From Nemertoderma westbladi (taxonomy: Eukaryota > Animalia > Xenacoelomorpha): 64,000 nucleotides of DNA. Each line of letters begins with the position of its first letter. Position 1 is the stretch's first letter. The translations under genes were made by a program, and so were the position numbers. The notes under the pieces were generated by a model. The model had not been told where the DNA came from and searched no databases. It saw only the letters and a list, made by a program, of their open reading frames with translations. Where the stretch lies: positions 24,110 through 88,109 of the forward strand of contig JAUCBJ010000795.1 in the NCBI GenBank assembly GCA_032718475.1. The letters run 5' to 3'. Shown here in pieces: positions 791 through 61,809 of the stretch.

Positions 791-1705
791 CTACTCGGAG
801 GGCTCCTCTTCTTCGACCACAGCTATAGGCGAGTAGTAGGATCCCGGCATCCGACCATTGGAGGTGGGGACAATGGGACGAGCGGGAGTGTTGGTCGAGG
901 GAACAGTGGGCCCAGTCGGGGAAGTGGAGGGGTTCCCGAGTAGCGAATCTACGGGAGCAGAGCTGGCAGGAGGTGGAAGGAAGAGGCAATTTACATCTCG
1001 ATCAGTCCCGATACGCATCGGCTTGTCTCCATTGCAGACGCGGGCAAATACGACGCCGTTGCGGGTATAAAACGAGTGGATTCGTGCCGCGCGATGTAGA
1101 GCGCGCAGCGATTTAACGAGCAGTGCACGACTCGCAATAAGGTGTTCAGTGATCGCGATCGGCTTAGCGAGATTCTTTTTATTCTGGAGAGCGCAGACGC
1201 GCTGACTGTGTCCGTAGCACCGGATGATCATGGTGCGGGCGCGGGGTTTAAGAGGTTTAGATCCATTAACCGAGTTCGGAGGGCGGACCGCGTTTCCTAA
1301 TCGGTGGAAGACGTCAACGTCGTTGATCGACAATTTAAGTGGAGTAAGAACATCTGCGATGAGACTGGCCCTCTCGTTGGCGGAGTTGTTCTCCTCCGGT
1401 AGGTTGTGGACCAGGATGTTGTGACGGCGTTGGTAGACCTGCAACTCCTCATTTTCTACTAGGAGCGTGGTATTCTTTCGTTGAAATGACTCATTGTGCT
1501 TAATAAGGATCGCGTTATCAGACTCTAGATTGGAAATACGAGCAGTATTAGTTACGATTGCCTGACGTGCCTCCTTGAGTTCGTATCTAAACTCATCCTG
1601 TAGCTCACGGAGCTCCCTGATTTCCTTCTGCAGCTCATCTTGGCCTGCGTGTAGGTCGTCCAGGCGGCGGAGGATTGCCTCACCAACATCCTTCCAGTTG
1701 GGCAT
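791..1705 (-). CDS. Non-LTR retrotransposon (CR1/L2-type) ORF1: coiled coil, RRM-like domain and CTD
   Basis: 304 aa with a heptad-rich N-terminus, then NILVHNLPE..FHRLG..RTMIIR..ITEHL..YTRNGVVF, motifs typical of L1-like (transposase_22) ORF1p. Confidence 0.85.
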   Translation of the reverse strand: MPNWKDVGEAILRRLDDLHAGQDELQKEIRELRELQDEFRYELKEARQAIVTNTARISNLESDNAILIKHNESFQRKNTTLLVENEELQVYQRRHNILVHNLPEENNSANERASLIADVLTPLKLSINDVDVFHRLGNAVRPPNSVNGSKPLKPRARTMIIRCYGHSQRVCALQNKKNLAKPIAITEHLIASRALLVKSLRALHRAARIHSFYTRNGVVFARVCNGDKPMRIGTDRDVNCLFLPPPASSAPVDSLLGNPSTSPTGPTVPSTNTPARPIVPTSNGRMPGSYYSPIAVVEEEEPSE

Positions 1706-2022
1706 TCCGGACGGGGAGATTTGGAATATTAGCGAGTGATTAAAATATCGATAACGCTGTCTACCGGGGTAGTTTCTCGGTCTGAGTAAAAGTCCACTAG
1801 TCAGGCGAGCAGTACTAAGTATGCATTAGGACAGCACAGTACAGTATCAATAACACTTTCACGTTTATTATTAGATTCGATTCGATTATAGAGTTTGTAA
1901 TAATAATAAATGAATTGTTGTGGGGTGAGTGACGGTTAATTTAAATATATAATGTAATAAATATGACAATATGATAATGCTCTCCATAGCGAAAAATGTA
2001 AACCGTCCCTACTGGGGCTCGA

Positions 2023-2066
2023 ACCCGGTACCTAGGTTTCAAACTTCCGGTTATCATCGGCCGGGT
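2023..2066 (-). ncRNA. Hammerhead motif copy with a mutated core (CCGATGA)
   Basis: Same layout as 2169-2214 but with a U4-to-C change; probably inactive. Confidence 0.6.
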
Positions 2067-2168
2067 GTGTTTTGCTTTGTTGTACTTTCCTTTTAGTGAT
2101 TAGTTGGCCTAAATATGATATTCCACTCCATAGCGAAATCTTCATCCGATCTGGTAGCTCAGTACGCA

Positions 2169-2214
2169 AACCCGGCTGATGATAACCGGAAGTTTGAAAC
2201 CTAGGTACCGGGTT
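2169..2214 (+). ncRNA. Minimal type I hammerhead ribozyme motif
   Basis: AACCCGG-CTGATGA-TAAC CGGAA GTTT-GAAA-C CTAG G-TA-CCGGGTT: 7-bp stem I, canonical core, short stem II, 1-bp stem III with a palindromic CTAG loop, and a GUA cleavage triplet (cut after 2207). Confidence 0.75.
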
Positions 2215-2448
2215 CGAGCCCCAATAGGGTCGGTTGATATTTTTCGCTATGGAGAGCATTATCATATTGTCCTATTTATTAGATTATAGAGTTTGATCCA
2301 GTAGCTCTCAACGCAGTGTAACCACTACACCCCGGTTCAGGAGGTTAAGTAGTCGTCCCGCCGACGTTTAAATACCAAGATAGTGCAATCAGATAGATCA
2401 CGAACAGCATGTGGGATCATATTAAACAGTCGTGGTCCTTAAACATAA

Positions 2449-4560
2449 TAATAATAATAATAAATGATATTTGTATTTGGTGTTGCAGGCGCCCTTAGGG
2501 AGTATTTACACTCTTATCAGGGCGCCTGCAGCTGCCGCACTAATCTAATTTACAATTACCGGTAAACAAAAGGGTTTTCAGTTCGCGTCTAAATGAGTCA
2601 TAGGTCATCATGGATTCAGTTGATCGGGTCGATGGCGGTAGTTTATTCCACAAACGAGGGGCAAACGAGTAGAAGCTCTTCGATGCTAGGGTGTTTTTCA
2701 CAAGTGGGACAGAAAGCTTTGAGAGATTGCTGGATCGCAACGTACGGGTATCCTCAAGGATAGATATTTCATTGCGCAAATAAGTCGGGGCAGTCCCGGA
2801 CAGACATTTAAATGTGATACAAGCAAGCTTATAATTAATCCGTGATTCAATGGGCAGCCAGTGAAGGGATTTCAGCATTGCCGTTGCCGAGGTGTACTTG
2901 TATTGTCCATTGATAACACAATATCGCGGAGAATGAGTAACCAATCTTGCAGCGCTGTTTTGTATCATTTGTAGACGTTTAACTACTGATTTAGCGGATG
3001 TTTTAAGGACAGCGTTTGAATAGTCGATTCTGCTGGTTATGAATGCGTGGACTAGGGTTTCTAGAGCTGAAGTTGTAAGGTAAGCCCGAATTTTATACAA
3101 AGACCGGATATAATATTTCGATTTCGCTGCTGTTGCTACTATCTGATCTTTAAATTTCAATTCACTATCAAACACAACTCCGAGAGATTTAACCTTATCA
3201 GAGAAATCTATCTTAACGTTTCTGTATACAATTGTTCTGGCATTCAGAGGTATCTTCATTCTTTGTTGTTTCGTGCCATATACAATCAGTTCAGTTTTAT
3301 CTGGGTTAATTTGTAGGTGATTAACGTCCATCCAATCAGCAACAATATGTAGCACAGCAGTGATACGAGTCTTCAGGGTCTCTATATCTTCAGCATATCC
3401 AGTCACAAAGAATTGTGTGTCATCAGCATAGTTGCACCTTTCACTCCTAATGCATCCACACGCCAGAACAGGTCAGTCATATACGCATTATAAAGTGCTG
3501 GCCCAAGGATACTTCCCTGAGGCACGCCGGTTTAAAGCAATGTTTTATCAGATGTACTCTCATCAATTTTCACGCATTGTTGTCTGTCAGATAAATAGGA
3601 CTCAAAGAGATTAAGTGCAGCACCAGTGAACCCAAATTCTTTACTGAGCTTAAATATAAGGTTTTTGTGATGGACAGTGTCGAACGCCGCACTCAAATCA
3701 ATATAGGAGCACAAAGTAACTTGTTGATTTTCTATTCCCTTAAGAAATTTATTTAGAAGAAATAGATTAGCAGTTTCAGTGGAATGGTGCCGTCTGTAAC
3801 CAGACTGTGTCTGGTGAAAAGCTAGCTGTGGTGTAGCTCTATAAAGTATCACTTTCTCAACTACCTTAGATAAGAAACTAAGGTTTGACACTGGTCGATA
3901 ATTTTTTAATATCTCAGCATCCAACTCCGGTTTCTTTAAGAGAGGTCTTACGATAGACAGTTTAAGAAAGGCTGGGAATTCCGCATCTGCTAAAACCATG
4001 TTTATATACATCGTTAAGGGCTGAATAACAACGGGAATTACTGATTTAAATAAAGGCGTTGGCATACAGTCCAGTTCGCAAGTTGCATTTGACATCTTCC
4101 TTATGAGTTGAGCTAAGTCTTCCTCTTGAAAAGGCTGAAATTCACAAAAGTCTGTTTTATACAATTATTACATCGACTGCTCGTATTGAATGTCAACATA
4201 ATAGTGTTAATTTTTTCAGTGAAAAAATGTGAGAACTTTGTTGCTAACTCAGCACTATTGCCATGCTTAGTCGGTAAAACAAGGTTTCCTCCCTTTCCCA
4301 ATAACCTTTTAAACTGTTTCCACAGAAGTTTTGAGTTAGTCGAATTGGTATTAATATAATCGCAGTAAAACGCCCTTGTAGAATCGCGAAGCAATTTCGC
4401 TAGGTCCGACTTTGCTATATTTAAATTAACTTTGTTCTGCTCAGTCAGTTCTTTGTGAAACGCAAGTTCACACCGTCTCTTCTTCTTCCGTTTAGTCTGG
4501 ATCCCCTCCATATCTTCCTCCCTGATTTTCGAGTGTTTAGTGTTGATCTTTACAATCTTC
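2449..4560 (-). mobile_element. 5'-truncated, frameshifted L2-clade LINE (RT plus C-terminus)
   Basis: ORF pieces 4113-4511, 3532-4164 (NYRPVSNLSFLSKVVEK, DLSAAFDTV), YADDTQ at ~3410-3432, and 2540-3406 (LKSLHWLPIESRINYKL). 3' stem-loop tgcaggcgccct..agggcgcctgca at ~2484-2530 and a (TTA)n tail. Confidence 0.9.
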
Positions 4561-4713
4561 TCGCAGAAGCTATTATTGTAGAGAGATATAATGCGGCCGA
4601 TATTTAGGAGACTGGGTATTACACGAAAAGTTAAAAAATAATTCCGAAAATTACACGTTTATTAGATTTAATTATTAGATGTCGATTTTATCGTTGATGA
4701 GGAATTCGTTAGA

Positions 4714-5896: not shown

Positions 5897-8726
5897 TATA
5901 TTAAACGTGGAAATTAGAAATTTGAAGCATGTTCCTGTTTATATCGGTATAAAAACATCTGATCAAAAAATGCAAGAAACGAAAGTTAAAAAAATACAAT
6001 TTCATAGGATACAAAAATATTTACTGTTTTTCACACGAACTTTTTGTTTTGCATTTAGGCCTATTTTGGGAAAAATAAGTGGTAAATTCAAAATAGCTAT
6101 GTTCGGTTTCACTTCGGTTCCGGTTCGGCTCCTCCGTAGTTCGGCCGATCTTTATATTTGGGATCGTGGTGGGGTGGGGGGCCTGGGGCCTCGGCCCCTC
6201 CCCCCCCCCCCCCCCCCCCCCCCCATTCCTAAATACGGCCCTGCCTATTCATGGACGAACAGCTATTACTAACTGTGGCAAATATGTAACCTCACCAGGG
6301 CTACTCTCTCCAGAAAGAGAATTCAATTTTATTACTCAAGTAATGGAGCCGCAAAAATACCACTGACAGGTTTATTTTCAATTACTTAACTTATGTACTA
6401 AAATAAAATAAACGAGAGAAATTAAACCCCAATGAACCCTAATCCGGCCTGCCTTGGTTAAACTTTCACCAAAGCCCTATTCTGAGTTAGAACCCCCACT
6501 GCATCGGTCCCAAAACATGCCCTGTACTTCCCTTTTATAAGTAGAAACTCCCTCATTCTGTCATCATCCACTAGTTCCCAACACGCGTGCTACACCATAG
6601 CGCGGTCTGTCATACTAGCTGTAGGCTAGTGGGTACCGGTACTGCATAAGCAGTAGATAATTAACGCAGTCAGATTAGCGAACTGATCATAATATTAAAG
6701 CTAAAATCAGTCTTTCACGGTACAATTACTGCATTATTATAGCGAAAAGTATAAAACAAAGCAGAATCAAAGATTACAGCAACATTCAACAACAAAATCA
6801 CATGACTTACTTCAAAGTAAATTATTATACTACTACTACTACTAGGTCGAGCGAACTCGGACATTAGGCCTATTATTATATAAATAATTAATTAATAAAT
6901 AGAATTAAATTATATAAATAAATAAGAATAACAACAATAAGCAAGAAGAATGAGTCACCAATAGTAAAGCAAAATCCTACTTTCATTGGACCTCCCTAAA
7001 TAGCTAAACCAATGAAAAAGCCGGATTATTGCCCTACTCGCTACTTTTCGCCTAGTGTTATTAACGTACCATATATGGATATGAAAGTGCTCTTTTGGGC
7101 TTCTAATAGACCCCTATACGAGCCATTTACGCAACAGTAAATTATTATAAAGGGATTAGTGTGGCTATACATTTTACTACCAAATTCTGTCGTGGTGGCA
7201 TTTGGCATTCCTATTAAATATACACCGTAAATACACTGTGCATAAATACTACTCCTCCATTTCTTAACCATTTTTTGAAATTTTTTCTTCATATGAAAGG
7301 TAATTTCATAAGATAATTCGATAATTATTACGATTTTATATGAATACTAAGTACGTACTGTATAGCTTAAATTTCCTTCCAAATAGCACTAATATATTTC
7401 ATATATAACAAAAACGTAAAAAATTCGGGGCTGTTTCTTAATTTCTAAATAATGGGCAATTACCAACGAAATGCGTACATACAATTAATTGCCTAGGCAT
7501 TTTAACACACGTAGAGGACTAAAATTGCCATTTATAATGAGCAGATCATTTTTAAATATTTTCCAATGGATTCAGCGCCCCAGAAAACCTGTATTGAAAA
7601 AAGATTAACCGAAAATTTCAAATTTTTGGAAAATTGTTCTGCTTGAAATTTTGGTGCTACAAATAACAACCCCAGTAGAATTTTTCGAAATTTTTTATTT
7701 TCGGTCGGATTCATACTAGTGAAATTAAAATCTAAATATAATTTTAGTTCGGTGGTGTAGGCCTACTTCCTTCATGTCAGACACTATTAACCAACCAGAC
7801 CCCATACAGTTAATTTTGTGCGGGAAGGTTTGAATTTTGAGGTGATTATCTCAGCTAGAATGACATTTTTTCGTACGAAAAATACTACTCCTCCATTTCT
7901 TAACCATTTTTTGCAATTTTTTCTTCATATGAAAGGTAATTTCATAAGCTTTAACAAATTCTCCATATTTTGAATGAAAAATTAGAAATAACATGGGTTT
8001 TTTCAGTTTTTAAAAAATTTCGAATTTTTTTTCAAAATTGCCAATTATCAGAAATAGAAAACGAAAATACAAAAAGTGCATGAAAAATATGATGTAAATG
8101 AACTGCTGGTTCCAGAAAATGTGGTATCGGAAAATAAAAATGGAAAATATGAAGGCGTAGGGCCTAGTCTTATTAGTGAAATTTTTAAAATCTTCATTAC
8201 GTGCTGCGCGAAGGCCCCACTTCTATAAATAGTTTGTGCTCATTGTTTATAGAGTAAAGAAATATAAAGTATATCGATATCGCCGATATCACCGATAACA
8301 AAATTTATAAGTTCCGTGTTTATAGACTGAAGTTTAGCTTTGTTGGCCCTGGAATGTCATTGTCTCGTTTCCAATTCCGTATTCACATTGGTGGTTCCAT
8401 CTGTAACGGCATTGTGGAAGTGTCTGTGACTTCCACCACAACCACACATCGACTATATTCATCTTGTTTATGCGACAATTCATCATTTAGCGATGCGATA
8501 TAATTTGCGAAGGGAGATGAGCGATAGTCGCTATCTATGCTGTGTCTCTTTCGTCGATCTCTTGGTGTTTCTCTGTCTAAAGTTTGAATTTTCGGGATTT
8601 GGTAGGCCTTTTACTTCTTCTATATTATTTTAAGTATTTTACTGCAATCGTTTATATTATATCAGAAAAATATTAATATATATAAATTATTTTTATTACA
8701 ATTTATTTAAATATAATATATTATAA

Positions 8727-9990
8727 ACTACTACTAGGTCGAGCGAACTCGGACAGTGGAAATGAGATCCTTCCAGGCTTCCCGATTCTCCAACTACTAC
8801 TAGGTCGAGCGAACTCGGACAGTGGAAATGAGATCCTTCCAGGCTTCCCGATTCTCCATAGTTGTCGCAATTGCGTTTCTCCCAAGTTCAGTATCCCTTT
8901 CAAGTTGATCTATATATGTTATAGCCAGTCGTCCACGACTACGCTTTCCATGTGTTGGTTGCCAGACAAGTAGATCTGGTATGACCTCGTCTTTACTTCG
9001 CCAACAGTGCCCACTGAATCTTAATCTGCGTTAACGGGTGGTGGTTGATACAGGTGGTATTGTGTACCATAAATCTCGGCGTTTGTCATGTTTTGTCTCC
9101 AGCTGACGTTTAGGGCAGCGCCATTAGTAGTCTTGTGTGCAACCATCAATTCGGCATTCAAGTGATTTAGTCAGTGTCCAGGTCTCACCCCCGTATAAAA
9201 ATACTCTTACCACTGTGGCTCCCACTTATGCGTTCTTGTAATGTGAATCCCAGATCTCCACCCTTTGTGGCCGTCCTCATTGAGTAATCAAGTACAATTA
9301 CAAATAGTATTGGTGCTAATGTGTCACCTTGCAGTACGCCAGCCAGGACTGAGAAGAACTCAATTTCACCATCTGATGAGAGTACCTGAGCTTCTGTGTC
9401 ACAATATAATAATCGAATGCAAGCCACAATTACCTCTGGTATTCCATAAGCTCTTAGAATTTCCGGCATTTTACCTCTATGGATTGAGTCGAAGGCCTTC
9501 TTGAAGTCCACAAAAGTCATGACTGCGGGGAGATTCTTTGACTTAATTCCCTCAATCAGTCTCCGTAGCGGAAGTATCTGAGCTATTGTTGATCTATTTT
9601 GTCGAAATCCGTTTTGGCTCTTACGCAGTAGTTTCTCTGTGAGGCCTAATCCTATATAGAATCATTTTGTTATGTATTTTGGCAGCTACCACAAGCAGGC
9701 AGATTTTAGCAGCTACCACAAGCAGACAGATCCCACGATAGTTTGTTGGTATACCGTGGTCTCCTTTCTTGGGGAGGGGCTTTAGTTGACCTTTAGTCCA
9801 AATTGGTGGTGGTTTTTCCCCTTTCAGCATCTGGTTGGAAACATTCAATAATGGTCTGTTTAGCACTCCGGTTTTCCTTACCTTCGCTGGGATTTCATAT
9901 AATCCACTCGCTTTATTATTGGACATGCTTTTAATGCTTCTTTGGAGTTCGACAGGTGTGAAGTCCCCTGTTTCTATAGGTAGTGTTACT
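8727..9990 (-). mobile_element. RTE family 1 fragment, internally deleted (FADD region lost)
   Basis: NYRGICLL, FVDFKKAFDSIHR, GVLQGDTLAP and a (TAG)n tail. Carries a 27-bp ICLLVVAAK duplication and a deletion junction at ~9222. Confidence 0.9.
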
Positions 9991-11446
9991 TTGGCTCTTA
10001 CGCAGAAGTTTCTCTATGTGAGGCAAGCAAAATCCTACTTTCATTGGACCTCACTAAATAGCTAAACCAATGAAAAAGCCGGATTATTGGCCTACTCGCT
10101 ACTTTTCGCCTAGTGTTATTAACGTACCATATATGGATATGAAAGTGCTCTTTTGGGCTTCTAATAGACCCCTACACGAGCGATTTACGTAACAGTAAAT
10201 TATTATAAAGGGATTAGTGTGGCTACACATTTTACTACCAAATTCTGTCGTGGTGGCATTTGGCATTCCTATTAAATATACACCGTAAATACACTGTGCA
10301 TTGGGTATGAATATAAGTATTGTGCCCAAGTAAATGCACCCGAAATGTCCCCTTATTCCTAATATGACCAAATAACTGTTAGTTCTTATACTTCCCCCAT
10401 TTCTTATGATAACTATTACGATTTTATATGAATACTAAGTACGTACTGTATAGCTTAAATTTCCTTCCAAATAGCACTAATATCTTTCATATATAACAAA
10501 AACGTAAAAAATTCGGGGCTGTTTCTTAATTTCTAATTTCTTTTTCTAATTAATTTTCTAATTTATAATTTCTAAATATTCATAACTTTTGTTATGGAAA
10601 TCCATAAAGAATCAAGCGTTGATGGTGCAAAATTACTGCAAAGACTAACGGTTTGTTGGTTTGAATCATTAATTTAATTTAATTCATTAAGGAAATTACC
10701 CTGGGTTGCCAGGGTAATATGTTCTAGAATAACGCAAAAAAATGAAGAGAGCTGCTGAGCTGAAGGTTTAAGAAGACGGTTGAACCGAGCCCGAATATCA
10801 CGTCAGGCAAACGAGACTTACCGCTGCGCCGGTACTTCACTTTCCGTTCACTAGTACCCAAGGTATTGTTCGTGGTAATTTCCTGCACATTTAAGGCCCG
10901 GGTTCTTACCTTGAATCAATCCTCGCGCCCACGCGCTCTGGCCCTTCGCGATTTCAGGTACGGCCCGCCCCCCCTACTCCACTCTGCATACTCCTACTCC
11001 ACTTCCTCTCCACTCCGATTTTCGCGTTTTTAGAATATTCGGTGACGGTTCTATTTAAACACTATTCTGTGAACACTGTAGATATTTTTTTATTATATTT
11101 TAATATTTTACATATATTTATCAACTAAATTAAATTCACCTTGCTAAATTAAGACGTAAACATACAATTGCTATTTTCACTTAATTAACAGCTTTAATTT
11201 CTTTGCATTTCAGTTATTATTTTTTGAAGATTTTGCAGATCTATTTTTAGACATCTTTTATTTAATAACTATCTGAACTGATTACATAATATTAAAGCTA
11301 AAATCAGTCTTTCACGGTACAATTACTGCATTATTATAGCGAAAATTCGTAAAAAATTCGGGGCTGTTTCTTAATTTCTAAATAATGGGCAATTACCAAC
11401 TAAATGCGTACATACAATTGCCTAGGCATTTTAACACACGTAGAGG

Positions 11447-11638
11447 ACTCAATTTCACCATCTGATGAGAGTACCTGAGCTTCTGTGTCACAATATAATA
11501 ATCGAATGCAAGCCACAATTACCTCTGGTATTCCATAAGCTCTTAGAATTTCCGGCATTTTACCTCTATGGATTGAGTCGAAGGCCTTCTTGAAGTCCAC
11601 AAAAGTCATGACTGCGGGGAGATTCTTTGACTTAATTC
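11447..11638 (-). mobile_element. ~190-bp RTE RT piece copied from ~9358-9548
   Basis: Shares the private KMPEIL variant with the 9185 copy; other copies read KMLEIL. Confidence 0.8.
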
Positions 11639-13597
11639 TCAGTAAATACACTGTGCATTGGGTATGAATATAAGTATTGTGCCCAAGTAAATGCACCCGA
11701 AATGTCCCCTTATTCCTAATGTGACCAAATAACTGTTAGTTCTTATACTTCCCCCATTTCTTATGATAACTATTACGATTTTATATGAATACTAAGTACG
11801 TACTGTATAGCTTAAATTTCCTTCCAAATAGCACTAATATCTTTCATATATAACAAAAACGTAAAAAATTCGGGGCTGTTTCTTAATTTCTAATTTCTTT
11901 TTCTAATTAATTTTCTAATTTATAATTTCTAAATATTCATAACTTTTGTTATGGAAATCCATAAAGAATCAAGCGTTGATGGTGCAAAATTACCGCAAAG
12001 ACTAACGGTTTGTTGGTTTGAATCATTAATTTAATTTAATTCATTAAGGAAATTACCCTGGGTTGCCAGGGTAATATGTTCTAGAATAACGCAAAAAAAT
12101 GAAGAGAGCTGCTGAGCTGAAGGTTTAAGAAGACGGTTGAACCGAGCCCGAATATCACGTCAGGCAAACGAGACTTACCGCTGCGCCGGTACTTCACTTT
12201 CCGTTCACTAGTACCCAAGGTATTGTTCGTGGTAATTTCCTGCACATTTAAGGCCCGGGTTCTTACCTTGAATCAATCCTCGCGCCCACGCGCTCTGGCC
12301 CTTCGCGATTTCAGGTACGGCCCGCCCCCCCTACTCCACTCTGCTCGCTTCCTCTCCACTCCGATTTTCGCGTTTTTAGAATATTCGGTGACGGTTCTAT
12401 TTAAACACTATTCTGTGAACACTGTAGATATTTTTTTATTATATTTTAATATTTTACATATATTTATCAACTAAATTAAATTCACCTTGCTAAATTAAGA
12501 CGTAAACATACAATTGCTATTTTCACTTAATTAACAGCTTTAATTTCTTTGCATTTCAGTTATTATTTTTTGAAGATTTTGCAGATCTATTTTTAGACAT
12601 CTTTTATTTAATAACTATCTGAACTGATTACATAATATTAAAGCTAAAATCAGTCTTTCACGGTACAATTACTGCATTATTATAGCGAAAATTCGTAAAA
12701 AATTCGGGGCTGTTTCTTAATTTCTAAATAATGGGCAATTACCAACTAAATGCGTACATACAATTGCCTAGGCATTTTAACACACGTAGAGGACTAAAAT
12801 TGCCATTTATAATGATCAGATCATTTTTAAATATTTTCCAATGGATTCAGCGCCCCAGAAAACCTGTATTGAAAAAAGATTAACCGAAAATTTCAATTTT
12901 TTTGAAAATTGTTCTACTTGAAATTTTGGTGCTACAAATAACAACCCCAGTAGAATTTTTCGAAATTTTTTATTTTCGGTCGGATTCATACTAGTGAAAT
13001 CAAAATCTAAATATAATTTTAGTTCGGTGGTGTAGGCCTACTTCCTTCATGTCAGACACTATTAACCAAACAGACCCCGTACAGGTAATTTTGAATTTTG
13101 AGGTGAATATCTCAGCTAGAATGACATTTTTTCGTACGAAAAATACTACTCCTCCATTTCTTAACCATTTTTTGCAATTTTTTATTCATATGAAAGGTAA
13201 TTTCATAAGCTTCAACAAATTCTCCATATTTTGAATGAAAAATTAGAAATAACATGGGTTTTTTAAATTTTTAAAAAATTTCGAATTTTTTTTTCAAAAT
13301 TGCCAATTATCAGAAATAGAAAACGAAAATACAAAAAGTGCATGAAAAATATGATGTAAATGAACTGCTGGTTCCAGAAAATGTGGTATTGGAAAATAAA
13401 AATGGAAAATATGAAGGCGTAGGGCCTAGTCTTATTAGTGAAATTTTTAAAATCTTCATTACGTGCTGCGCGAAGGCCCCACTTCTATAAATAGTTTGTG
13501 CTCATTGTTCAATAGAAAGTATATCGATATCACCGATAACAAAATTTATAAGTTCCGTGTTTATAGACTGAAGTTGAGCTTTGTTGGCCCTGGAATG

Positions 13598-16500
13598 TGT
13601 TGGATATCCCTTTCCGATGTAGCAATGTAAAACTAATCAGTTATGAGTTACTTCCAACACGCTTAGTATTGTATAATAATAAAGTAGTCTGACTACAGTA
13701 TTACTGCATTAGGTCAAGCAACGCACTGACACAACACAACTATTGTATAATGCGGTACCGGTATATAATTACTGTAGTCTGTAGCCATGTGTTACACGGT
13801 AACAGGCCTACATAAACTGGCATGGCCTATATTCTGTGTAGCATGGCTTTACCTGTTAATAGTAGATCCTAACAATACTCCCCCTGGGAAATATTCAGTT
13901 CAAAAGAACAAATATATGTTTATTATATGGTCTACGTTATATGGTCTTAATCCTCATTTTAGTCCATATTAGTTTTCGAGTCAAAACCATAGTAATCAGT
14001 TTTCTTGCGGATCCGTATTGGGTATCGTGTTCCAGCGTCACTTTGAGTTTGATCCGACCTCGACTCCGAACTAGGTTCGACAGTATGTCTCATTTGTCCT
14101 CGTTCTTGGGTTTCCACTGTATCGTCTCTTGCGCCCAAGTGGTTTTCCGCCGTAACCTCTCTTGCTCCCATGTTCACATCAGCCGAGGTTTCAATTGTCT
14201 TGGTACCTCCATTTTTGTTATCAACTCGTTTTGGCTGAAAAATGTCTTTGTTACTCTCTCCCCCTTGGCCTACAAAAGGGCTGAATCGTTTCCTCAGGTG
14301 ATCAAGATGGCGTCTGAATATGGTTCCACATATTTCCACTGTAGCGACTCTTGAACCAAAAAGTCCTTGATATATCGCGGGTAACCATTTTTCAGTAGGT
14401 TTACGACGAGAAAAGTTTCGTACCCAGATCGCTTCCCCTTTGATATAGTTTCCACTGGTAGTGATTATCTTTGGATCTTCAGGGAATTTCAGTAGGCGAT
14501 GTAAACGTGTTTTAATGTTTCGACCTCCAAAAATCATTTCAGCTGGAGTCTGACCGTTTTCTTTAATGGTGCTGTGGTCAGCTAAGAGAAATATGGCAAT
14601 CTTTTCTTTCAGAGGTATCTTTGAATTGGACAGTTTCTTAAAAGTTGTTTTAAAGGATTGCACTAATCGCTCAGCAGCGCCGTTGCTGTTTGGTTTATAT
14701 GGAGCAGAGGGCCATAAAGCAACTCCATTTTCCTTGCAGAAACGTGATAGTTCAGCTGCTCGAAACTGTGGTCCATTGTCTGCTGTAACAATTTTTGGAA
14801 CAGAAAAATCAGCAAAAAACTGTCGGCAAGATTGTATAACAGTCTCTGCAGTGGGATTCTTTGTCACCAGTTCAACACGAGACCATTTAGTTTTCGCACA
14901 TATTAATCCTAACAATGTTTGTCCCTCGTATTCGCCGAAATCGAGGTGGATTCGCTCGAAAGGCTCGGTTGGTTCGGGCATTGGTTTCAGAGGAACATGG
15001 ACTTCCTTAGAATACTGCTGGCATTGTTCACAGGATTTGGTGTATAAGTCGATGTCTTTAGCAATGTTCAACCACCAAACTGTATCTTTTGCTAAACCAG
15101 TCATCCTTTGTTTCCCAATATGCCCTTCATGCAGAATTTCGAGAACATTATTTTGAAGGTGCTCTGGAATCAGTACAGCCATTCCACGGAAAATTGTCCC
15201 ATTATGGACAGTTAATTCATTCCGGATGTGTTTATACGGACGTAGTTCAGGTGAGTTAGAGGTATTTCCTGATGCTAGTTCGAGAACTAACTTTTGAAGA
15301 ATAACATCCTTCTCAGTAGCATCTTTGATGCCTATGCGGTTGAACTTAAACAATTCCGCTGTAGCTTGCTCCATATGTATGTCTGTAATCTTAATATCAA
15401 CCATACCATCGATCTCTTCTTTTGGCTTAGAAAGCCTTGTGAAACAGTCAACAGGGTTGTCTTCTGATTTAATGAATTTTGGTGTGAAATTGTAATTTGA
15501 CATTTCAACAGACCAGTGCTGTAGTCTGGATAGTGCCATTGATGGTAATTTCGCAGAAGGTGCTAGGATATGTTTCAATGGTAAGTTGTCAGTTATTAAA
15601 ATAAAATGTCTTCCCAGAATATAAGATCTGAATTTCCGAACAGCAAATATGATTCCAAGGGCTTCCCGGTCGATTTGAGAGTAATTACGCTGAAATTTAT
15701 TTAGCGATGCAGATGTGAAAGACACTGGGGTTAAACAGTTGTCATCCTGTTTTTGGAGTAGTACAGCAGACACGGCGGTCGGTGATGCGTCAGTAATTAT
15801 CGTGGTTTCCTTTTTTGTATCAAAAAATGTCAGTAGTGTTGACTTTGCTATTTCAGCTTTGATTCTGTTGAATGCTTGGTTTGTTGTATCGTTCCATATG
15901 AATTCTGCATCCTTTGAAAGTAGACTGTACATTGGTTGTGCTATCTCAGCAAATGATGGGACAAATTTATGCAAGTAGTTGAATAATCCAAGTACTGATT
16001 GGAGTTCTTTGACGTTCTCCGGTGGTTGAAGAGCAGCAATTGTATCTATCTTTTTGGGGTCTGGGCGAATACCATCTTTAGAAATTAGATGTCCGCAGAA
16101 CTCGACTGTATTTTGAAAAAACTTACATTTCTCCATACGCAATGTCAACCCAAAGTGGCGAAGGGCAGATAAAACAGACTTGAGGTTTTCAATATGCTCT
16201 GCTTTGTTCTTCTCAGTAATAACACATTCATCCATGTATGTGGCGCTTTTAGTGTTATGCAAGGCTTCGTATATTCCCCTGAGACATTTAGTTCCTGAAC
16301 TTTTTACTCCATATGGAACTCTAGTCGGAATTAGTAGTCCTAATGGTGTGTTTAGCGTAGTAATTAGCTCAGCTTCTTTAACTAATGGGAACTGGTGGTA
16401 TGCTTCCTTCAAGTCAAGGATCGTAAATTCCTGTCCTCCAGAAATTTTGTTTGTGATTTCATCTAAGGTTGATAACTGGAAAGTATCTTCAATGAGAAAT

Positions 16501-18956
16501 GGATTTATTGTGGATTTGTAATCACCACACACACGAATTTTATTGTTTCGCAATGAAACAACCAATGGGGTTGCCCATTTTATTTCCTCATTGGGTTCAG
16601 GTTTGCGTAGAATACCACGTTTCAGGTCGTTTTCCAGAATCTGAATGACTTCGTCTTTGTACCCAAATGCTATTTGACAGCAACTTAGGAATCTTGGTTT
16701 GGCTTCATCTGACAATGCTAATGTTGCAGGCTGTCCCTTGAATTTCCCAAGACCCGTAAAGACATCCTTGAATTCTAATTTCAAGTTATTCAAAGTATCA
16801 CTGAATTGTACATTGTTTCCAATGTGTACCATCGTTTTTTTATCACTTGTACCTGTAAAATTGTCACGAAGGCAATCAACTCCGCAGTTTAGCCTGTCTA
16901 TCCAGTATTTTCCGAAAAGTGGAAGGCCTTGTAATGCTTTGTCAATTATGAGCAAAGGCAAACTATGTTCAGTGATGCCTAATTTGGGTATATTAACTGT
17001 TACTTTACTAATACCCTTTACATTCTGTATTCCATCACAAAATCCTTTTAATATTGTATCTGTTTCTTCTAAGCTTTCACATGGGAATAGTTCCTGGAAT
17101 TGCTTAAAAGATATTACTGAGTGTCTAGCTCCTGAATCTAGTTCGCATTTAACAATCTTACCATTTATTTCTGGTGTGCAAGTCATTGGAGCAACTTTTT
17201 CCAGCAAATTTATTGGGTTTACCGTAATTGTAGTTACCAGATTCATGTAATGTATGAAATCGTCATCATACTCTTCCCCATCAACATCGCTGTCTTCTGT
17301 AACCTGTAATTGTTTCATTTTCTGGCTTGTAGTTCCAGATTTATATGGGTTTGTAGTACCCGATTTATTGAGACGCGAATGTCCTGTGTTATTTGGGGTT
17401 TTTTTGTTTGCTTTCATGCAAGCGGCTTGTATATGCCCTGAAGCCCCACAGGAATTACATTTTACTGTTTCTGGTAATTTGCATGTGGTAATTTTGTGTC
17501 CATTCCTATTACAGCGGTAACACACAATATGCGTTGTATTTGTATCTTTAGCTTTTATGCGGTACCTGGACTGTAACTGTAGTTTGTGGGTCTCTACTGA
17601 TATACCATCCACCTCACGCTTTGCATTTTCTCGTGCCTCTTCATAGTTTGTTGCTATGTCAACAGCTGCAATAAAAGTGTCTGGTTTCTGTCTCATTAAC
17701 TCTGTGGCTATGTATTCATCCTTGACCCCTGCTAAAAATTGCTCTTTTAGTCTACCATCAAGGGTAGCTCCAAATTCACAGTAACGTGAAGCTGCTTTGA
17801 TTGATTTAGAAAATTCGGCTATGCTTTCATGTTGTTTCTGCTGCAATCTGATGAATTTACGTATTTCTGCTTCTTTATTTATTTTATGATTGAAGTATGT
17901 ATCCACTGCTGTAATAATATCTGTGTAATTTGCTGTAAGTATGTCTGTAGGGTAGATTAGATCCATAGCAATTTCGAGTAGGTCTGTGCCACAATTCGCA
18001 AGGAATAATTTACGCTTTTCAGCTTCTAAATTTGCGTCATTATTGAAAGTTGTCGAATCAATTATTACCGCTAGCATGGTTTTATAAACTGGCCATTTGT
18101 CTGTAGACATTTTAAAAGGCTTGAATAGTTTGGCATACTTTGTAGAAACTGCCATAGTTTGTAGTGTAAGTTGAATTTTGAAATTGAACACGTACCGGTA
18201 GTATGTAGAGGCGTATGCAGTTTAGTATTCAGTTAATTCGCAGATTGACTACTGTACTGCAGAATTGTAGATTGTAGATAATTGCCTTATCCTAGTGTGT
18301 AGGCAATCGTTAAAACTCGCGGATTGACTGCTGTAAGTGCTGTAATGCAGTCCTTTCACTCCCGTAGGTAACCGTACCTGCAGTGTAATCTGCTTACCTG
18401 GTAGGTTGGCGTCCGAATTATAGAACAACGGCGTATAACGTGTTCAATTTAAACGTAATTTCTGAAATACCGGTACTGGTATGTTGTAGACATTTGTATG
18501 CATTAGTAGTTCGGCGTAGGTGTAGGCATGTAGGCCTAATGCTGAACTTCTGTAATTACTGAATGCTGTAATCTACGTTGTAGGCCTACATGAAGCTGTA
18601 GGTAAGCATAGGTACTTCAAAACCTGTCTGCTTGTGTAACCGCGTGTATGTGTTCAATATTTTCCATCGCAGCGCCAATTGTTGGATATCCCTTTCCGAT
18701 GTAGCAATGTAAAACTAATCAGTTATGAGTTACTTCCAACACGCTTAGTATCGTATAATAAAAAAGTAGTCTGACTACAGTATTACTGCATTAGGTCAAG
18801 CAACGCGCTGACACAACACAACTATTGTATAATGCGGTACCGGTATATAATTACTGTAGTCTGTAGCAATGTGTTACACGGTAACAGGCCTACATAAACT
18901 GGCATGGCCTATATTCTGTGTAGCATGGCTTTACCTGTTAATAGTAGATCCTAACA
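13598..18956 (-). mobile_element. Full-length Gypsy (Mag-like) LTR retrotransposon
   Basis: 277-bp LTRs (TG..CA) at 13598-13874 and 18680-18956 with ~4 mismatches. TSD gaatg at 13593-13597 and 18957-18961. PBS TGGCGCTGCGA (tRNA-Ser-like) next to the right LTR; PPT AGGGGGAG next to the left LTR. Confidence 0.97.
13959..18191 (-). CDS. Gypsy gag-pol polyprotein: 2x CCHC, protease, RT, RNase H, integrase
   Basis: CYRCNRNGHKITTC and CNSCGASGHIQAAC; LDSGA; VCGDYK, LDLKEAYHQ, YMDE; TDAS..NYSQIDREALG; H-H-C-C; HLDFG, ADNGPQF, AAERLV. Confidence 0.95.
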   Translation of the reverse strand: MFNFKIQLTLQTMAVSTKYAKLFKPFKMSTDKWPVYKTMLAVIIDSTTFNNDANLEAEKRKLFLANCGTDLLEIAMDLIYPTDILTANYTDIITAVDTYFNHKINKEAEIRKFIRLQQKQHESIAEFSKSIKAASRYCEFGATLDGRLKEQFLAGVKDEYIATELMRQKPDTFIAAVDIATNYEEARENAKREVDGISVETHKLQLQSRYRIKAKDTNTTHIVCYRCNRNGHKITTCKLPETVKCNSCGASGHIQAACMKANKKTPNNTGHSRLNKSGTTNPYKSGTTSQKMKQLQVTEDSDVDGEEYDDDFIHYMNLVTTITVNPINLLEKVAPMTCTPEINGKIVKCELDSGARHSVISFKQFQELFPCESLEETDTILKGFCDGIQNVKGISKVTVNIPKLGITEHSLPLLIIDKALQGLPLFGKYWIDRLNCGVDCLRDNFTGTSDKKTMVHIGNNVQFSDTLNNLKLEFKDVFTGLGKFKGQPATLALSDEAKPRFLSCCQIAFGYKDEVIQILENDLKRGILRKPEPNEEIKWATPLVVSLRNNKIRVCGDYKSTINPFLIEDTFQLSTLDEITNKISGGQEFTILDLKEAYHQFPLVKEAELITTLNTPLGLLIPTRVPYGVKSSGTKCLRGIYEALHNTKSATYMDECVITEKNKAEHIENLKSVLSALRHFGLTLRMEKCKFFQNTVEFCGHLISKDGIRPDPKKIDTIAALQPPENVKELQSVLGLFNYLHKFVPSFAEIAQPMYSLLSKDAEFIWNDTTNQAFNRIKAEIAKSTLLTFFDTKKETTIITDASPTAVSAVLLQKQDDNCLTPVSFTSASLNKFQRNYSQIDREALGIIFAVRKFRSYILGRHFILITDNLPLKHILAPSAKLPSMALSRLQHWSVEMSNYNFTPKFIKSEDNPVDCFTRLSKPKEEIDGMVDIKITDIHMEQATAELFKFNRIGIKDATEKDVILQKLVLELASGNTSNSPELRPYKHIRNELTVHNGTIFRGMAVLIPEHLQNNVLEILHEGHIGKQRMTGLAKDTVWWLNIAKDIDLYTKSCEQCQQYSKEVHVPLKPMPEPTEPFERIHLDFGEYEGQTLLGLICAKTKWSRVELVTKNPTAETVIQSCRQFFADFSVPKIVTADNGPQFRAAELSRFCKENGVALWPSAPYKPNSNGAAERLVQSFKTTFKKLSNSKIPLKEKIAIFLLADHSTIKENGQTPAEMIFGGRNIKTRLHRLLKFPEDPKIITTSGNYIKGEAIWVRNFSRRKPTEKWLPAIYQGLFGSRVATVEICGTIFRRHLDHLRKRFSPFVGQGGESNKDIFQPKRVDNKNGGTKTIETSADVNMGAREVTAENHLGARDDTVETQERGQMRHTVEPSSESRSDQTQSDAGTRYPIRIRKKTDYYGFDSKTNMD

Positions 18957-21900
18957 GAATGTCATTGTCTCGTTTCCAATTCCGTATTCACATTGGTGGT
19001 TCCATCTGTAACGGCATTGTGGAAGTGTCTGAGACTTCCACCACAACCACATATCGACTATATTCATCTTGTTTATGCGACAATTCTTCATTTAGCGATG
19101 CGATATAATTAGCGAAGGGAGATGAGCGATAGTCGCTATCTATGCTGTGTCTCTTTCGTCGATCTCTTGGTGTTTCTCTGTCTAAAGTTTGAATTTTCGC
19201 GATTTGGTAGGCCTTTTAGTTGAAATTTTAATTGAAAATTTAAATTTTTTTGAAAATTGTTCTACTTGAAATTTTGGTGCTACAAATAACAACCCCAGTA
19301 GAATTTTTCGAAATTTTTTATTTTCGGTCGGATTCATACTAGTGAAATCAAAATCTAAATATAATTTTAGTTCGGTGGTGTAGGCCTACTTCCTTCATGT
19401 CAGACACTATTAACCAAACAGACCCCGTACAGGTAATTTTGAATTTTGAGGTGAATATCTCAGCTAGAATGACATTTTTTCGTACGAAAAATACTACTCC
19501 TCCATTTCTTAACCATTTTTTGCAATTTTTTATTCATATGAAAGGTAATTTCATAAGCTTCAACAAATTCTCCATATTTTGAATGAAAAATTAGAAATAA
19601 CGTGGGTTTTTTAAATTTTTAAAAAATTTCGAATTTTTTTTTCAAAATTGCCAATTATCAGAAATAGAAAACGAAAATACAAAAAGTGCATGAAAAATAT
19701 GATGTAAATGAACTGCTGGTTCCAGAAAATGTGGTATCGGAAAATAAAAATGGAAAATATGAAGGCGTAGGGCCTAGTCTTATTAGTGTAATTTTTAAAA
19801 TCTTCATTACGTGCTGCGCGAAGGCCCCACTTCTATAAATAGTTTGTGCTCATTGTTTATAGAGTAAAGAAATATAAAGTATATCGATATCGCCGATATC
19901 ACCGATAACAAAATTTATAAGTTCCGTGTTTATAGACTGAAGTTTAGCTTTGTTGGCCCTAGAATGTCATTGTCTCGTTTCCAATTCCGTATTCACATTG
20001 GTGGTTGCATCTGTAACGGCATTGTGTCTGTGACTTCCACCACATAAAATAATATATATAATATATAATATAAAATATATAATAATAAAGAAAAAGGTAA
20101 TATTTTTTGAGTAATTTACAAACTTTCGTTATGGAAATCCATAAAGAATCAAGCATTGATGGTGCAAAATTACCGCAAAGACTAACGGTTTGTGGGTTTG
20201 AATCATTAATTTAATTTAATTCATTAAGGAAATTACCCTGGGTTGCCAGGGTAATATGTTCTAGAATAACGCAAAAAAATGAAGAGAGCTGCTGAGCTGA
20301 CGGTTTAAGAAGACGGTTGAACCGAGCCCGAATTTCACATCAGGCAAACGAGACTTGCCGCTGCGCCGGTACTTCACTTCCCATAATGGGCAATTAGGAC
20401 ATTAGGCTCGGAACTCGGACATTAGGCCTATTATTATATAAATAATTAATTAATTAATATAATTAAATTATATAAATACATAAGAATAACAACAATAAGC
20501 AAGAAGGATGAGTCACCAATAGTAAAGCAAAATCCTACTTTCATTGGACCTCACTAAATAGCTAAACCAATGAAAAAGCCGGATTATTGCCCTACTCGCT
20601 ACTTTTCACTTGGGGTTATTAACGTACCATATATGGATATGAAAGTGCTCTTTTGGGCTTCTAATAGACCCCTATACGAGCGATTTACGTAACAGTAAAT
20701 TATTATAAAGGGATTAGTGTGGCTATACATTTTACTACCAAATTCTGTCGTGCGGGCATTTGGCATTCCTTATTAAATATACACCGTAAATACACTGTGC
20801 ATTGGGTATGAATATAAGTATTGTGCCCAAGTAAATGCACCCGAAATGTCCCCTTATTCCTAATATGACCAAATAACTGTTAGTTCTTATACTTCCCCCC
20901 ATTAACCTATATCTACCTAAATCTAAATCTACCTATAATTTAACGTTCAAATGGCGTTGAAAAACGAAAAATTTATAACAAATAAACGCTAGAATCTGAC
21001 GTTAGTAAAAGGCGTAAAAGTTAGTCGAACGTTCGTTTGGCCGCTTTTGTGACGTTAAAATTTCCCCAAAAACAACGTTGAATTTTACGTAAATATAATA
21101 TATTCCAACGTTATCTTTAACCGTTGAATTTGCAGTATATTAATCGTTAAACCAACTTCAGTTAATCAACAAAACTGACGTTAGATATCCACATTCCAAC
21201 GTTTATTTAATCAGGGATTTTCAGTTTTTCAGGCCACTAGGTAAATCTCACGTTACCAATAGTCAACCAGTCACCAATAGTCAAGCAAAATCCTACTTTC
21301 ATTGGACCTCACTAAATAGCTAAACCAATGAAAAAGCCGGATTATTGCCCTACTCGCTACTTTTCGCCTAGTGTTATTAACGTACCATATATGGATATGA
21401 AAGTGCTCTTTTGGGTTTCTAATAGACCCCTATACGAGCCATTTACGTAACAGTAAATTATTATAAAGGGATTAGTGTGGCTATACATTTTACTACCAAA
21501 TTCTGTCGTGGTGGCATTTGGCATTCCTATTAAATATACACCGTAAATACACTGTGCATAAATACTACTCCTCCATTTCTTAACCATTTTTTGAAATTTT
21601 TTCTTCATATGAAAGGTAATTTCATAAGATAATTCGATAATTATTACGATTTTATATGAATACTAAGTACGTACTGTATAGCTTAAATTTCCTTCCAAAT
21701 AGCACTAATATATTTCATATATAACAAAAACGTAAAAAATTCGGGGCTGTTTCTTAATTTCTAAATAATGGGCAATTACCAACTAAATGCGTACATACAA
21801 TTTCCTAGGCATTTTAACACACGTAGAGGACTAAAATTGCCATTTATAATGAGCAGATCATTTTTAAATATTTTCCAATGGATTCAGCGCCCCAGAAAAC

Positions 21901-22957
21901 CTGTATTGAAAAAAGATTAACCGAAAATTTCAAATTTTTTGAAAATTGTTCTACTTGAAATTTTGGTGCTACAAATAACAACACGTAGGCCTACTTCCTA
22001 CATATCAAGACACTATTAACTAAACAGACCCCATACAGGTAATTTTGTGCGGGAAGGTTTGAATTTTGAGGTGATTATCTCAGCTAGAATGACATTTTTT
22101 CGTACGAAAAATACTACTCCTCCATTTCTTAACCATTTTGTGCAATTTTTTCTTCATATGAAAGGTAATTTCATAAGCTTCAACAAATTCTCCATATTTT
22201 GAATGAAAAATTAGAAATAACATGGGTTTTTTCAGTTTTTAAAAAAATTTCGAATTTTTTTTCAAAATTGCCAATTATCAGAAATAGAAAACGAAAATAC
22301 AAAAAGTGCATGAAAAATATGATGTAAATGAATATGCTGGTTCCAGAAAATGTGGTATCGGAAAATAAAAATGGAAAATATGAAGGCGTAGGGCCTAGTC
22401 TTATTAGTGAAATTTTTAAAATCTTCATTACGTGCTGCGCGAAGGCCCCACTTCTATAAATAGTTTGTGCTCATTGTTTATAGAGTAAAGAAATATAAAG
22501 TATATCGATATCGCCGATATCACCGATAACAAAATTTATAAGTTCCGTGTTTATAGACTGAAGTTTAGCTTTGTTGGCCCTGGAATGTCATTGTCTCGTT
22601 TCCAATTCCATATTCACATTGGTGGTTCCATCTGTAACAGCATTGTGGAAGTGTCTGTGACTTCCACCACAACCACACATCGACTATATTCATCTTGTTT
22701 ATGCGACAATTCATCATTTAGCGATGCGATATAATTTGCGAAGGGAGATGAGCGATAGTCGCTATCTATGCTGTGTCTCTTTCGTCGATCTCTTGGTGTT
22801 TCTCTGTCTAAAGTTTGAATTTTCGGGATTTGGTAGGCCTTTTACTTCTTCTATATTATTTTAAGTATTTTACTGCAATCGTTTATATTATATCAGAAAA
22901 ATATTAATATATATAAATTATTTTTATTACAATTTATTTAAATATAATATATTATAA

Positions 22958-24220
22958 ACTACTACTAGGTCGAGCGAACTCGGACAGTGGAAATGAGATC
23001 CTTCCAGGCTTCCCGATTCTCCAACTACTACTAGGTCGAGCGAACTCGGACAGTGGAAATGAGATCCTTCCAGGCTTCCCGATTCTCCATAGTTGTCGCA
23101 ATTGCGTTTCTCCCAAGTTCAGTATCCCTTTCAAGTTGATCTATATATGTTATGGCCAGTCGTCCACGACTACGCTTTCCATGTGTTGGTTGCCAGACAA
23201 GTAGATCTGGTATGACCTCGTCTTTACTTCGCCAACAGTGCCCACTGAATCTTAATCTGCGTTAACGGGTGGTGGTTGATACAGGTGGTATTGTGTACCA
23301 TAAATCTCGGCGTTTGTCATGTTTTGTCTCCAGCTGACGTTTAGGGCAGCGCCATTAGTAGTCTTGTGTGCAACCATCAATTCGGCATTCAAGTGATTTA
23401 GTCAGTGTCCAGGTCTCACCCCCGTATAAAAATACTCTTACCACTGTGGCTCCCACTTATGCGTTCTTGTAATGTGAATCCCAGATCTCCACCCTTTGTG
23501 GCCGTCCTCATTGAGTAATCAAGTACAATTACAAATAGTATTGGTGCTAATGTGTCACCTTGCAGTACGCCAGCCAGGACTGAGAAGAACTCAATTTCAC
23601 CATCTGATGAGAGTACCTGAGCTTCTGTGTCACAATATAATAATCGAATGCAAGCCACAATTACCTCTGGTATTCCATAAGCTCTTAGAATTTCCAGCAT
23701 TTTACCTCTATGGATTGAGTCGAAGGCCTTCTTGAAGTCCACAAAAGTCATGACTGCGGGGAGATTCTTTGACTTAATTCCCTCAATCAGTCTCCGTAGC
23801 GGAAGTATCTGAGCTATTGTTGATCTATTTTGTCGAAATCCGTTTTGGCTCTTACGCAGTAGTTTCTCTGTGAGGCCTAATCCTATATAGAATCATTTTG
23901 TTATGTATTTTGGCAGCTACCACAAGCAGGCAGATTTTAGCAGCTACCACAAGCAGACAGATCCCACGATAGTTTGTTGGTATACCGTGGTCTCCTTTCT
24001 TGGGGAGGGGCTTTAGTTGACCTTTAGTCCAAATTGGTGGTGGTTTTTCCCCTTTCAGCATCTGGTTGGAAACATTCAATAATGGTCTGTTTAGCACTCC
24101 GGTTTTCCTTACCTTCGCTGGGATTTCATATAATCCACTCGCTTTATTATTGGACATGCTTTTAATGCTTCTTTGGAGTTCGACAGGTGTGAAGTCCCCT
24201 GTTTCTATAGGTAGTGTTAC
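22958..24220 (-). mobile_element. Duplicate of the RTE fragment at 8727-9990
   Basis: Same deletion, same 27-bp duplication and same doubled 3' unit; offset 14231 bp. Confidence 0.9.
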
Positions 24221-30145: not shown

Positions 30146-30489
30146 ATTATATATATATTATTACATATACTAATACAATTAATACTTAATATAATTATTT
30201 CTAATAAAAATATATATAATTATACAATTAGTTTTTTCTTGTGCAGAAGGCTTTGATTGTTTAGTTGTAGGCCTATATAGCAACTATACGTAGGCCACTC
30301 TGCATACAACCGTTCACCCTGTGTTATAACAATCGAAGTGATAGTATTAGTCGCGGAATTCAAGTATTATTAATCGTAATATTATATTAAATAATATTAA
30401 ATTAATATAAATTATATTCATATTAATATACAATTTTCCGGAGGAAAAATCATTAAAAAATCATACAAAATTATTCACTTCTAATTTAT

Positions 30490-47383: not shown

Positions 47384-47456
47384 GGTCACATAGTCTAGTG
47401 GTTATCAATCACGTTAATGAAACCTAAGTTCGCGGGTTCGAAATCCAATATTGACC
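47384..47456 (+). pseudogene. Degenerate tRNA-derived sequence (tRNA pseudogene or SINE head)
   Basis: ggtca..tgacc ends, A-box TAGTCTAGTGG and B-box GGTTCGAAATCC; the anticodon arm pairs poorly. Confidence 0.5.
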
Positions 47457-61760: not shown

Positions 61761-61809
61761 CTACTTACGCACAGACGTTACAGATACTGGGCTCGTCCTT
61801 AACGCTACT

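Follow-up and report, generated by a model that had tools for sequence, protein, structure and literature searches.

The closest described relatives of the element analysed here are the animal non-LTR retrozymes (PMC7229834; 10.64898/2026.07.22.740005). These resemble it in having a non-coding unit of 170-400 nt, a type I hammerhead with a short palindromic helix III, a self-paired RNA, a head-to-tail junction and a proposed dependence on Penelope elements. The published accounts available to us describe no tRNA body or Pol III promoter in retrozymes, whereas this element has a tRNA cassette, and retrozymes are reported as long arrays whereas its copies are dispersed composite insertions. Penelope-like elements and the hammerheads of their pLTRs (PMC4209133, PMC8557442, PMC11167929) share with it the partial tandem, the inverted 5′-truncated copy, the tail at one end and a hammerhead near the 3′ end. 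The present element differs from them in having no ORF, a short helix II without G10.1-C11.1, and the tRNA cassette. A tRNA-related Pol III promoter together with a hammerhead is found in the high-copy Sm-alpha and Sj-alpha repeats of Schistosoma, whose monomers, once cut, can no longer propagate by themselves (PMC6765202, PMC2770079), as those of this element would. [quoted passage not shown] In Pr77/L1TcRz of Trypanosoma cruzi a promoter and a self-cleaving ribozyme share letters, but the ribozyme is HDV-like and cuts 5′ of the promoter, which stays whole; it belongs to a LINE family, and the portion of the paper available to us describes no tRNA body (PMC3383444). Helenus, Ajax and Cassandra carry a small-RNA-derived Pol III cassette in a non-autonomous non-SINE retroelement. 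They differ in being LTR elements, and in the accessible part of the source ribozymes appear only in the reference list (PMC10886601). How hammerheads come to recur in the repeats of animals, and by which polymerase animal retrozymes are transcribed, are open questions in the literature consulted.

The window is the whole stretch of 64,000 nt of Nemertoderma westbladi DNA that was analysed. It contains an element that would function in the manner of a non-LTR retrozyme mobilised by Penelope machinery, which is a known kind. Pol III promoters combined with a hammerhead are also known, from Sm-alpha. What appears to be new is a hammerhead placed between tRNA-type boxes with a shared T-stem strand. 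We found no description of a hammerhead nested in a tRNA body in the openly readable literature, which agrees with the statement of the first-pass annotation that the layout is unlike described families; Repbase, Dfam and the consensus tables of the preprint could contain the family. We favour, with modest confidence, the reading that this is an abundant non-coding 369-nt retroelement mobilised in trans by Penelope enzymes, with a hammerhead inside a tRNA-like cassette and a cut predicted between the boxes, probably only as a dimer.

Five pieces of the element lie in two insertions within the window. Insertion 1 is bounded by identical 14-nt target-site duplications at 1884-1897 and 2282-2295. 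Copy B (1898-2070, minus strand) is 5′-truncated, has a 3′ tail ending in (TTA)n and carries a core broken by U4 to C (CCGATGA); it is the only one of the three window copies covering the core to be so affected. It stands head-to-head with copy A (2079-2281, plus strand), which is also 5′-truncated and whose 3′ end stops about 55 nt before the tailed end. On one side this insertion is flanked by a broken LINE RT region, at its 3′ end (791-1825, minus strand), and on the other by a coiled-coil ORF1-like frame (2540-4658, minus strand). Insertion 2 has identical 14-nt duplications at 61796-61809 and 62407-62420. Copy C (61810-62130, minus strand) has a tail-less 3′ end, a complete tRNA/hammerhead cassette (A-box 61945-61937, hammerhead 61929-61888) and the 5′ region. 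Copy D (62131-62271, minus strand) comprises the 3′ part and tail, begins inside stem III and is joined head-to-tail with C. Together they form a partial tandem of about 1.25 units, the period of which gives the unit length of 369 nt. A full unit on the minus strand runs from predicted cut to predicted cut between 62261 and 61893, starting with the B-box half and finishing with the A-box half. The C/D tandem is head-to-head with the inverted, 5′-truncated copy E (62268-62406, plus strand), the ~40-nt tail of which (62367-62406) adjoins the right duplication.

In both insertions each outer end is therefore a 3′ end of the element, one tailed and the other tail-less, the difference being ~40 nt at insertion 2 and ~55 nt at insertion 1. 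An inverted 5′-truncated copy is present in two of two. The unit is non-coding, with two overlapping ORFs of 76-78 aa that have no Pfam match. Copy C contains at least 178 nt of family sequence upstream of the cassette, which places the cassette in the middle of the unit. The 109-nt stretch 62022-62130 is unique in the window, but it is family sequence, with a summed contig depth of ~1e5, and the tail junction at 62131 is spanned by many contigs away from the contig ends. Copies D and E start at most ~20 nt upstream of the predicted cut, and this may be chance. The target duplications and insertion anatomy bear out the earlier description of a non-autonomous mobile retroelement of the Penelope/retrozyme kind, with a hammerhead between tRNA-type boxes. 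Three other parts of that description are replaced: a size of ~250 nt, a tRNA-like 5′ head where we find a mid-unit cassette, and two copies where there are five pieces, one with a broken core. It did not include the unit of 369 nt, the duplicated target sites, the Penelope-type anatomy or the defined tRNA positions of the ribozyme.

Published features of Penelope-like insertions are a partial tandem, an inverted truncated copy and, at one end, a tail of 30-40 bp (PMC8557442); for Penelope, both strands of the target have been described as being extended, with the RT starting at two sites (PMC11167929). The anatomy of the present insertions matches the Penelope type and not that of SINEs or LINEs. 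Mobilisation by Penelope machinery is likely because the anatomy at both of the two loci matches these published features, although the tail difference of insertion 1 exceeds the published 30-40. By analogy, a Penelope RT/GIY-YIG protein very probably starts synthesis at two sites, priming on both strands of the target, so that an RT/endonuclease supplied in trans would make the insertions. No GIY-YIG match to such a partner was obtained in 46 of the 123 ORFs of the window.

The cassette is described here for copy A, on the plus strand. The 5′ arm of a long hairpin (2112-2147) is followed by the acceptor 5′ strand (2148-2154, tRNA positions 1-7), which makes six of seven pairs with the acceptor 3′ strand (2225-2231, positions 66-72). 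The A-box TAGCTCAGT (2155-2163) comprises the first nine of the 11 letters of the box. The B-box GGTTCGAGCC (2211-2220; 2211-2221 within the T-arm) is in the expected order, 56 nt away from start to start. The whole type I hammerhead motif occupies 2171-2212. It consists of the stem I 5′ strand (2171-2175), the core box CUGAUGA (CTGATGA in the DNA, 2176-2182), stem-loop II (2183-2195; U.U at 10.1/11.1, three base pairs and a 5-nt loop), and GAAA (2196-2199), stem III and GUA within 2196-2207. The cleavage triplet GTA/GUA is at 2205-2207, with the cut predicted after 2207, and the palindromic stem III is the 8-nt self-complementary ACCTAGGT. Nucleotides 2208-2212 form the stem I 3′ strand and are also the T-stem 5′ strand of the T-arm (2208-2224); the B-box, from 2211, overlaps stem I, as had been claimed. 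A T5 run resembling a Pol III terminator (2240-2244) is present in all five copies. It lies ~8 nt beyond the acceptor stem, where a tRNA gene would have one, and the tail is ~100 nt further on.

The core elements CUGANGA, GAAA and UH are intact in copies A and C. Stem I has 5 bp, stem II 3 bp and stem III 2 bp, rising to 8 bp in a dimer. The hammerhead had been called minimal, but it is not of the helix-III-less type, and its stem II has 3 bp after a U.U mismatch. The G10.1-C11.1 pair, which is usual but not absolute, is missing; its place is taken by U.U, or by A-U in one contig of run X4 (see below), and U10.1.U11.1 is found in natural hammerheads (PMC3088659). The cloverleaf is not retained, since the D-stem is lost and the T-stem has three of five pairs.

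These motifs lie where the first-pass annotation put them (A-box at 2155, B-box at 2211) and are rare in shuffled sequence. A hammerhead descriptor finds two sites in the 64 kb, 2172-2211 (plus) and 61928-61889 (minus). In 200 dinucleotide shuffles it finds a mean of 0.035, with at least one site in 6 of the 200. The second site confirms the copy noted near 61887-61930, which differs only in loop II. An A-box/B-box pattern, built on a consensus from general knowledge, has four sites in the window compared with a shuffle mean of 0.07. Two of these are the two hammerhead copies, and the remaining two have the same B-box with a looser 9-mer upstream, in a fold-back. The long hairpin is also real (z = -5.56; none of 200 shuffles was equally stable). 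Of the database searches proposed earlier, the one for a hammerhead matched only Hammerhead_HH9 in Rfam. With a 141-nt query this match scored 16.4 bits (E 0.092), far below the gathering score of 52. No tRNA was returned by Rfam on the same query or by ARAGORN in the whole window. The whole-window Rfam matches to mir-2518 and OppA are hairpin artefacts.

A pattern of the core plus the B-box, with no A-box required, matched 4 viral and at least 120 metagenome loci. Among the 124 loci listed, 62 are intron-bearing tRNA calls, mostly Phe, and none has the A-box, a paired hammerhead and the B-box together outside tRNA genes, in collections poor in animal DNA. Viral contigs searched for sister families gave no match with A-box patterns or with the family's own 24-mer. 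We aligned 33 distinct tRNA genes from the pattern matches to set the register of the cassette, which informs on geometry only and not on descent; an archaeal-type tRNA-Phe donor was rejected on the same ground, the genes having been selected by the pattern. The A-box begins at tRNA position 8. CCCGG and CUGAUGA occupy the sites of the 5′ strand of the anticodon stem and the 7-nt anticodon loop. AGGTA, which includes the cut triplet and of which 2203-2207 is in register with the variable loop, is followed by CCGGG, a T-loop of 7 nt, a further 5 nt and the 3′ strand of the acceptor, all at exactly the distances of a tRNA. Towards the 5′ end the distances deviate by a few nt, this subfamily being shorter and a sibling subfamily longer. 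The sibling appears to carry 9 extra nt that complete the A-box, judging from loose contig ends, with consensus agreement of ~0.5, plus one clean contig from run X6. The loose letters at 61936/2170, considered as a 5′-truncation hot spot right after the A-box, were read instead as this 9-nt longer subfamily. Stem I makes five of five pairs in the element and the T-stem three of five, where the 33 real tRNA genes have 5 T-stem pairs and a mean of 3.1 for the would-be stem I. When a sequence model was built from 12 unselected tRNAs, its seven matches included all five copies, with E values of only 0.2-0.9 and no gaps from the variable loop onward.

The resemblance of the hammerhead U-turn to an anticodon loop is already known (10.1101/2022.01.19.477025). 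One possible origin, which we put forward tentatively and think rather doubtful, is that the hammerhead arose from a tRNA gene, such that the same 85 letters would be a Pol III promoter in DNA and a promoter-splitting ribozyme in RNA. The anticodon loop would have become the CUGANGA core and the variable loop the cleavage triplet; the T-stem strand would have taken a new partner to form stem I, and stem II would have come from a single short insertion. A live copy that Penelope enzymes could spread would then be restored only by circles or multimers. An origin of stem II by tandem duplication is unsupported, as 171 of 5,000 shuffles score as well.

Elsewhere in the window, 47384-47456 (plus strand) is a 73-nt tRNA-like relic with acceptor pairing, an A-box, a B-box and a T7 run. 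It is present as a single copy inside a ~200-nt hairpin (47320-47535) and has no meaningful Rfam match. Its sequence looks like the cassette without stem II. The 3′ half matches 2196-2226 at 25 of 31 letters, scoring 42 compared with at most 26 for 14 intronless tRNAs in a post hoc comparison; the whole body scores 44.5 against at most 40 for tRNAs, and is no clear outlier. Intron-bearing tRNA-Phe-type genes among the pattern loci have all the core letters in order, with no proper stem II, and in three of them (L120, L067 and L051) the would-be stem I makes four of four pairs. tRNA genes are a source of false hammerhead matches. Two metagenome contigs (L064:701-746 and L080:701-748, both minus strand) contain plain type I hammerhead-like sequences with stems I and II paired and no A-box upstream.

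In the minimum-energy fold of copy A the acceptor helix and T-hairpin are kept and the cut site is buried. The hammerhead fold of the monomer lies 10.1 kcal/mol above the minimum for copy A and 5.1 kcal/mol for C. A double hammerhead formed through the 8-nt palindrome has -61.2 (A) and -63.0 (C), compared with -64.2 (A) and -56.0 (C) for two free monomers, and is therefore better for C only. The best dimers reach -79.3 (A) and -71.1 (C), so that the double hammerhead is 8-18 kcal/mol worse. On these energies cleavage is plausible, although the prediction is for weak or regulated activity. On balance we incline to the view that at least some copies would cleave after GUA via the palindromic stem III. 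Penelope hammerheads have been reported to cut poorly in vitro (PMC4209133), and one of nine predicted retrozyme dimers cleaved (10.64898/2026.07.22.740005). For insertion of a lizard Penelope in vitro, hammerhead cleavage was dispensable (PMC11167929).

The element is abundant in sequencing runs from three studies of one organism, one of which is possibly the source of the window itself. A 376-nt unit matched 1,003-1,788 contigs per run in X1-X3. Over the two contig sets together the range was 677-1,788 per run in X1-X3, with 79 in X4; X5, from another organism, gave two contigs at a depth of 3-4 and was left out. Summed depth on the unit was up to 4.5e5 compared with tens for long single contigs, which is not a copy number; we infer that the copies number in the thousands. 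Strand switches account for 13 of 15 joints in one contig listing and for 8 of the 15 joints listed in another, which has 19 further. They recur across independent runs, and part of them may reflect the element's own complementarity.

Variants were listed from 2138 to 2232, with X6 (5 contigs) excluded. Fourteen sites reach 5% in X1, X3 or X4, and one more from a second contig set brings the number of variable sites to 15. Within the 42-nt hammerhead the variants at 5% or above fall at N7, at 10.1, at two loop II sites and at one site in stem I. The N7 variant reaches 47% in X4. U to A at 10.1 (42% in X4, from one contig) creates the A-U pair mentioned above, and a C to U variant in stem I at 5-14% retains a U.G pair. 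The commonest loop II variant makes up 48-74% of the depth and weakens the competing anticodon-like hairpin; it is carried by copy C, whose folding penalty is half that of A. At most one of the five hammerhead variants falls in the 34 constrained sites (P = 0.003), and the same test over all 95 sites gives P = 0.008; both tests are post hoc and count only contigs of 80% likeness, and the sites are not independent. None of the 15 variable sites falls in the 11 core letters (P 0.13). The core alone is therefore not significantly more conserved than its surroundings, the 3′ flank being nearly invariant too. The refuting condition named earlier, a core no better conserved than its flanks, thus has a mixed outcome: the core letters by themselves do not pass, but variants are placed non-randomly within the hammerhead. 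It is likely, in our judgement, that the hammerhead fold is under selection. In the acceptor, the pair 2149/2230 reads A-U in copy A and G-U in C, the majority letters (unphased) give G-C, and variants at 2150 and 2225 convert wobble to Watson-Crick pairs. G at 2230, at 17-27% of depth, disrupts one acceptor pair.

The odds that the A- and B-boxes recruit Pol III are about even. If they do, Pol III would make mostly an RNA of ~100 nt that stops at the T5 and is without a tail. Because the T5 run precedes the tail by ~100 nt, Pol III cannot simply produce the transposition template. A template reaching across the T5 is required for the D+C insertion, and so read-through of the T5, Pol II transcripts of tandems, or a circle must supply it. 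The cut-to-cut monomer would have its promoter halves in the wrong order, and a whole promoter would be restored only across the junction, in a circle or in a multimer copied over more than one unit. The insertion of 1.25 units fits the copying of more than one unit from such a circle or multimer. Ligation of retrozymes to circles by RtcB has been reported (PMC7229834).

Other readings of the data were weighed against this one. The hammerhead could be an inert, accidental look-alike in a tRNA-derived Penelope passenger whose RNA acts via a tRNA-like or rod-like fold, CUGANGA being a mere anticodon loop and GUH a variable loop. The mimicry by tRNA genes, at 62 of the 124 listed loci, speaks for this, as do the minimum-energy fold of copy A with its retained acceptor stem and T-hairpin and its buried cut site, a weak stem II and a core that is by itself not significantly conserved. 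We nevertheless consider it quite unlikely. Stem I is perfect, in contrast to the decayed T-stem and D-stem, the 8-nt palindrome lies across helix III as in dimer-type hammerheads, and the variants avoid constrained sites, the commonest of them weakening the anticodon-like hairpin.

It is also unlikely, we think, that the element is an ordinary Penelope-derived retrozyme in which the tRNA part is a dead or structural relic, with tandems transcribed by Pol II read-through and no role for Pol III. In such a case a pLTR hammerhead would have been swapped into a tRNA by template switching at the shared CUGA and AGGU. Retrozymes reportedly derive from pLTRs (10.64898/2026.07.22.740005), the letters around stem III are similar to the Rfam HH9 consensus, the A-box of this subfamily is without its last two letters, and the T5 precedes the tail. 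Moreover GCTC of the A-box is able to pair with GAGC of the B-box, and this pairing could preserve both boxes for structure alone. Yet the box order, spacing, acceptor stem and the T-run right behind are all kept, the sibling subfamily appears to carry a full A-box, and the G10.1-C11.1 pair and long helix II reported as typical of pLTR hammerheads (PMC4209133) are missing. Far less probable than either is a conventional tRNA-SINE moved by a LINE of the window, with fold-backs arising from twin priming or assembly error. The A- and B-boxes, the target duplications, the (TTA)n end and the many LINE RT fragments in the window would suit it. Against this, the cassette is not a 5′ head, each insertion has a 3′ end on either side, the two overlapping in sequence, neither 62010-62140 nor 1851-2400 matches any LINE of the window, and the strand-switch joints recur in independent runs. 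To our knowledge, twin priming does not yield two 3′ ends with overlapping sequence.

Under the favoured reading, that of a Penelope-mobilised element with a hammerhead inside its tRNA-like cassette, the same letters serve, position for position, in the ribozyme and in a tRNA-type promoter. Should the RNA cleave, it would offer a natural path, open to testing, by which a tRNA can become a hammerhead, and a promoter that splits itself and would tie spread to RNA circles or multimers. Should it not cleave, the element would be a Penelope passenger that carries a tRNA, and would caution that hammerhead descriptors can be mimicked by tRNA genes. At the level of single insertions, the two loci add clear evidence for the use of Penelope machinery by small hammerhead repeats.

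The window as a whole is rich in repeats, with LINE, Gypsy and BEL/Pao ORFs. A Gypsy-like open frame of 1,420 aa with RT, RNase H and integrase domains lies at 13959-18221 (minus strand), and one of 1,876 aa of the BEL/Pao type (DUF1759, Peptidase_A17, DUF5641) at 40260-45890 (plus strand). Near-identical blocks of hundreds to thousands of bases, including RT fragments, are repeated five to six times within ~6950-13560 and 19430-28520. A repeat with a GGTTCAA motif occurs at 10786, 12143, 20323, 25024, 26859 and 35918 (minus strand). There is a 38-bp satellite of 37 copies with 96% identity at 30482-31887, and two arrays of a related 20-21-bp G/T-rich minisatellite are found at 53869-54086 and 63648-63936.
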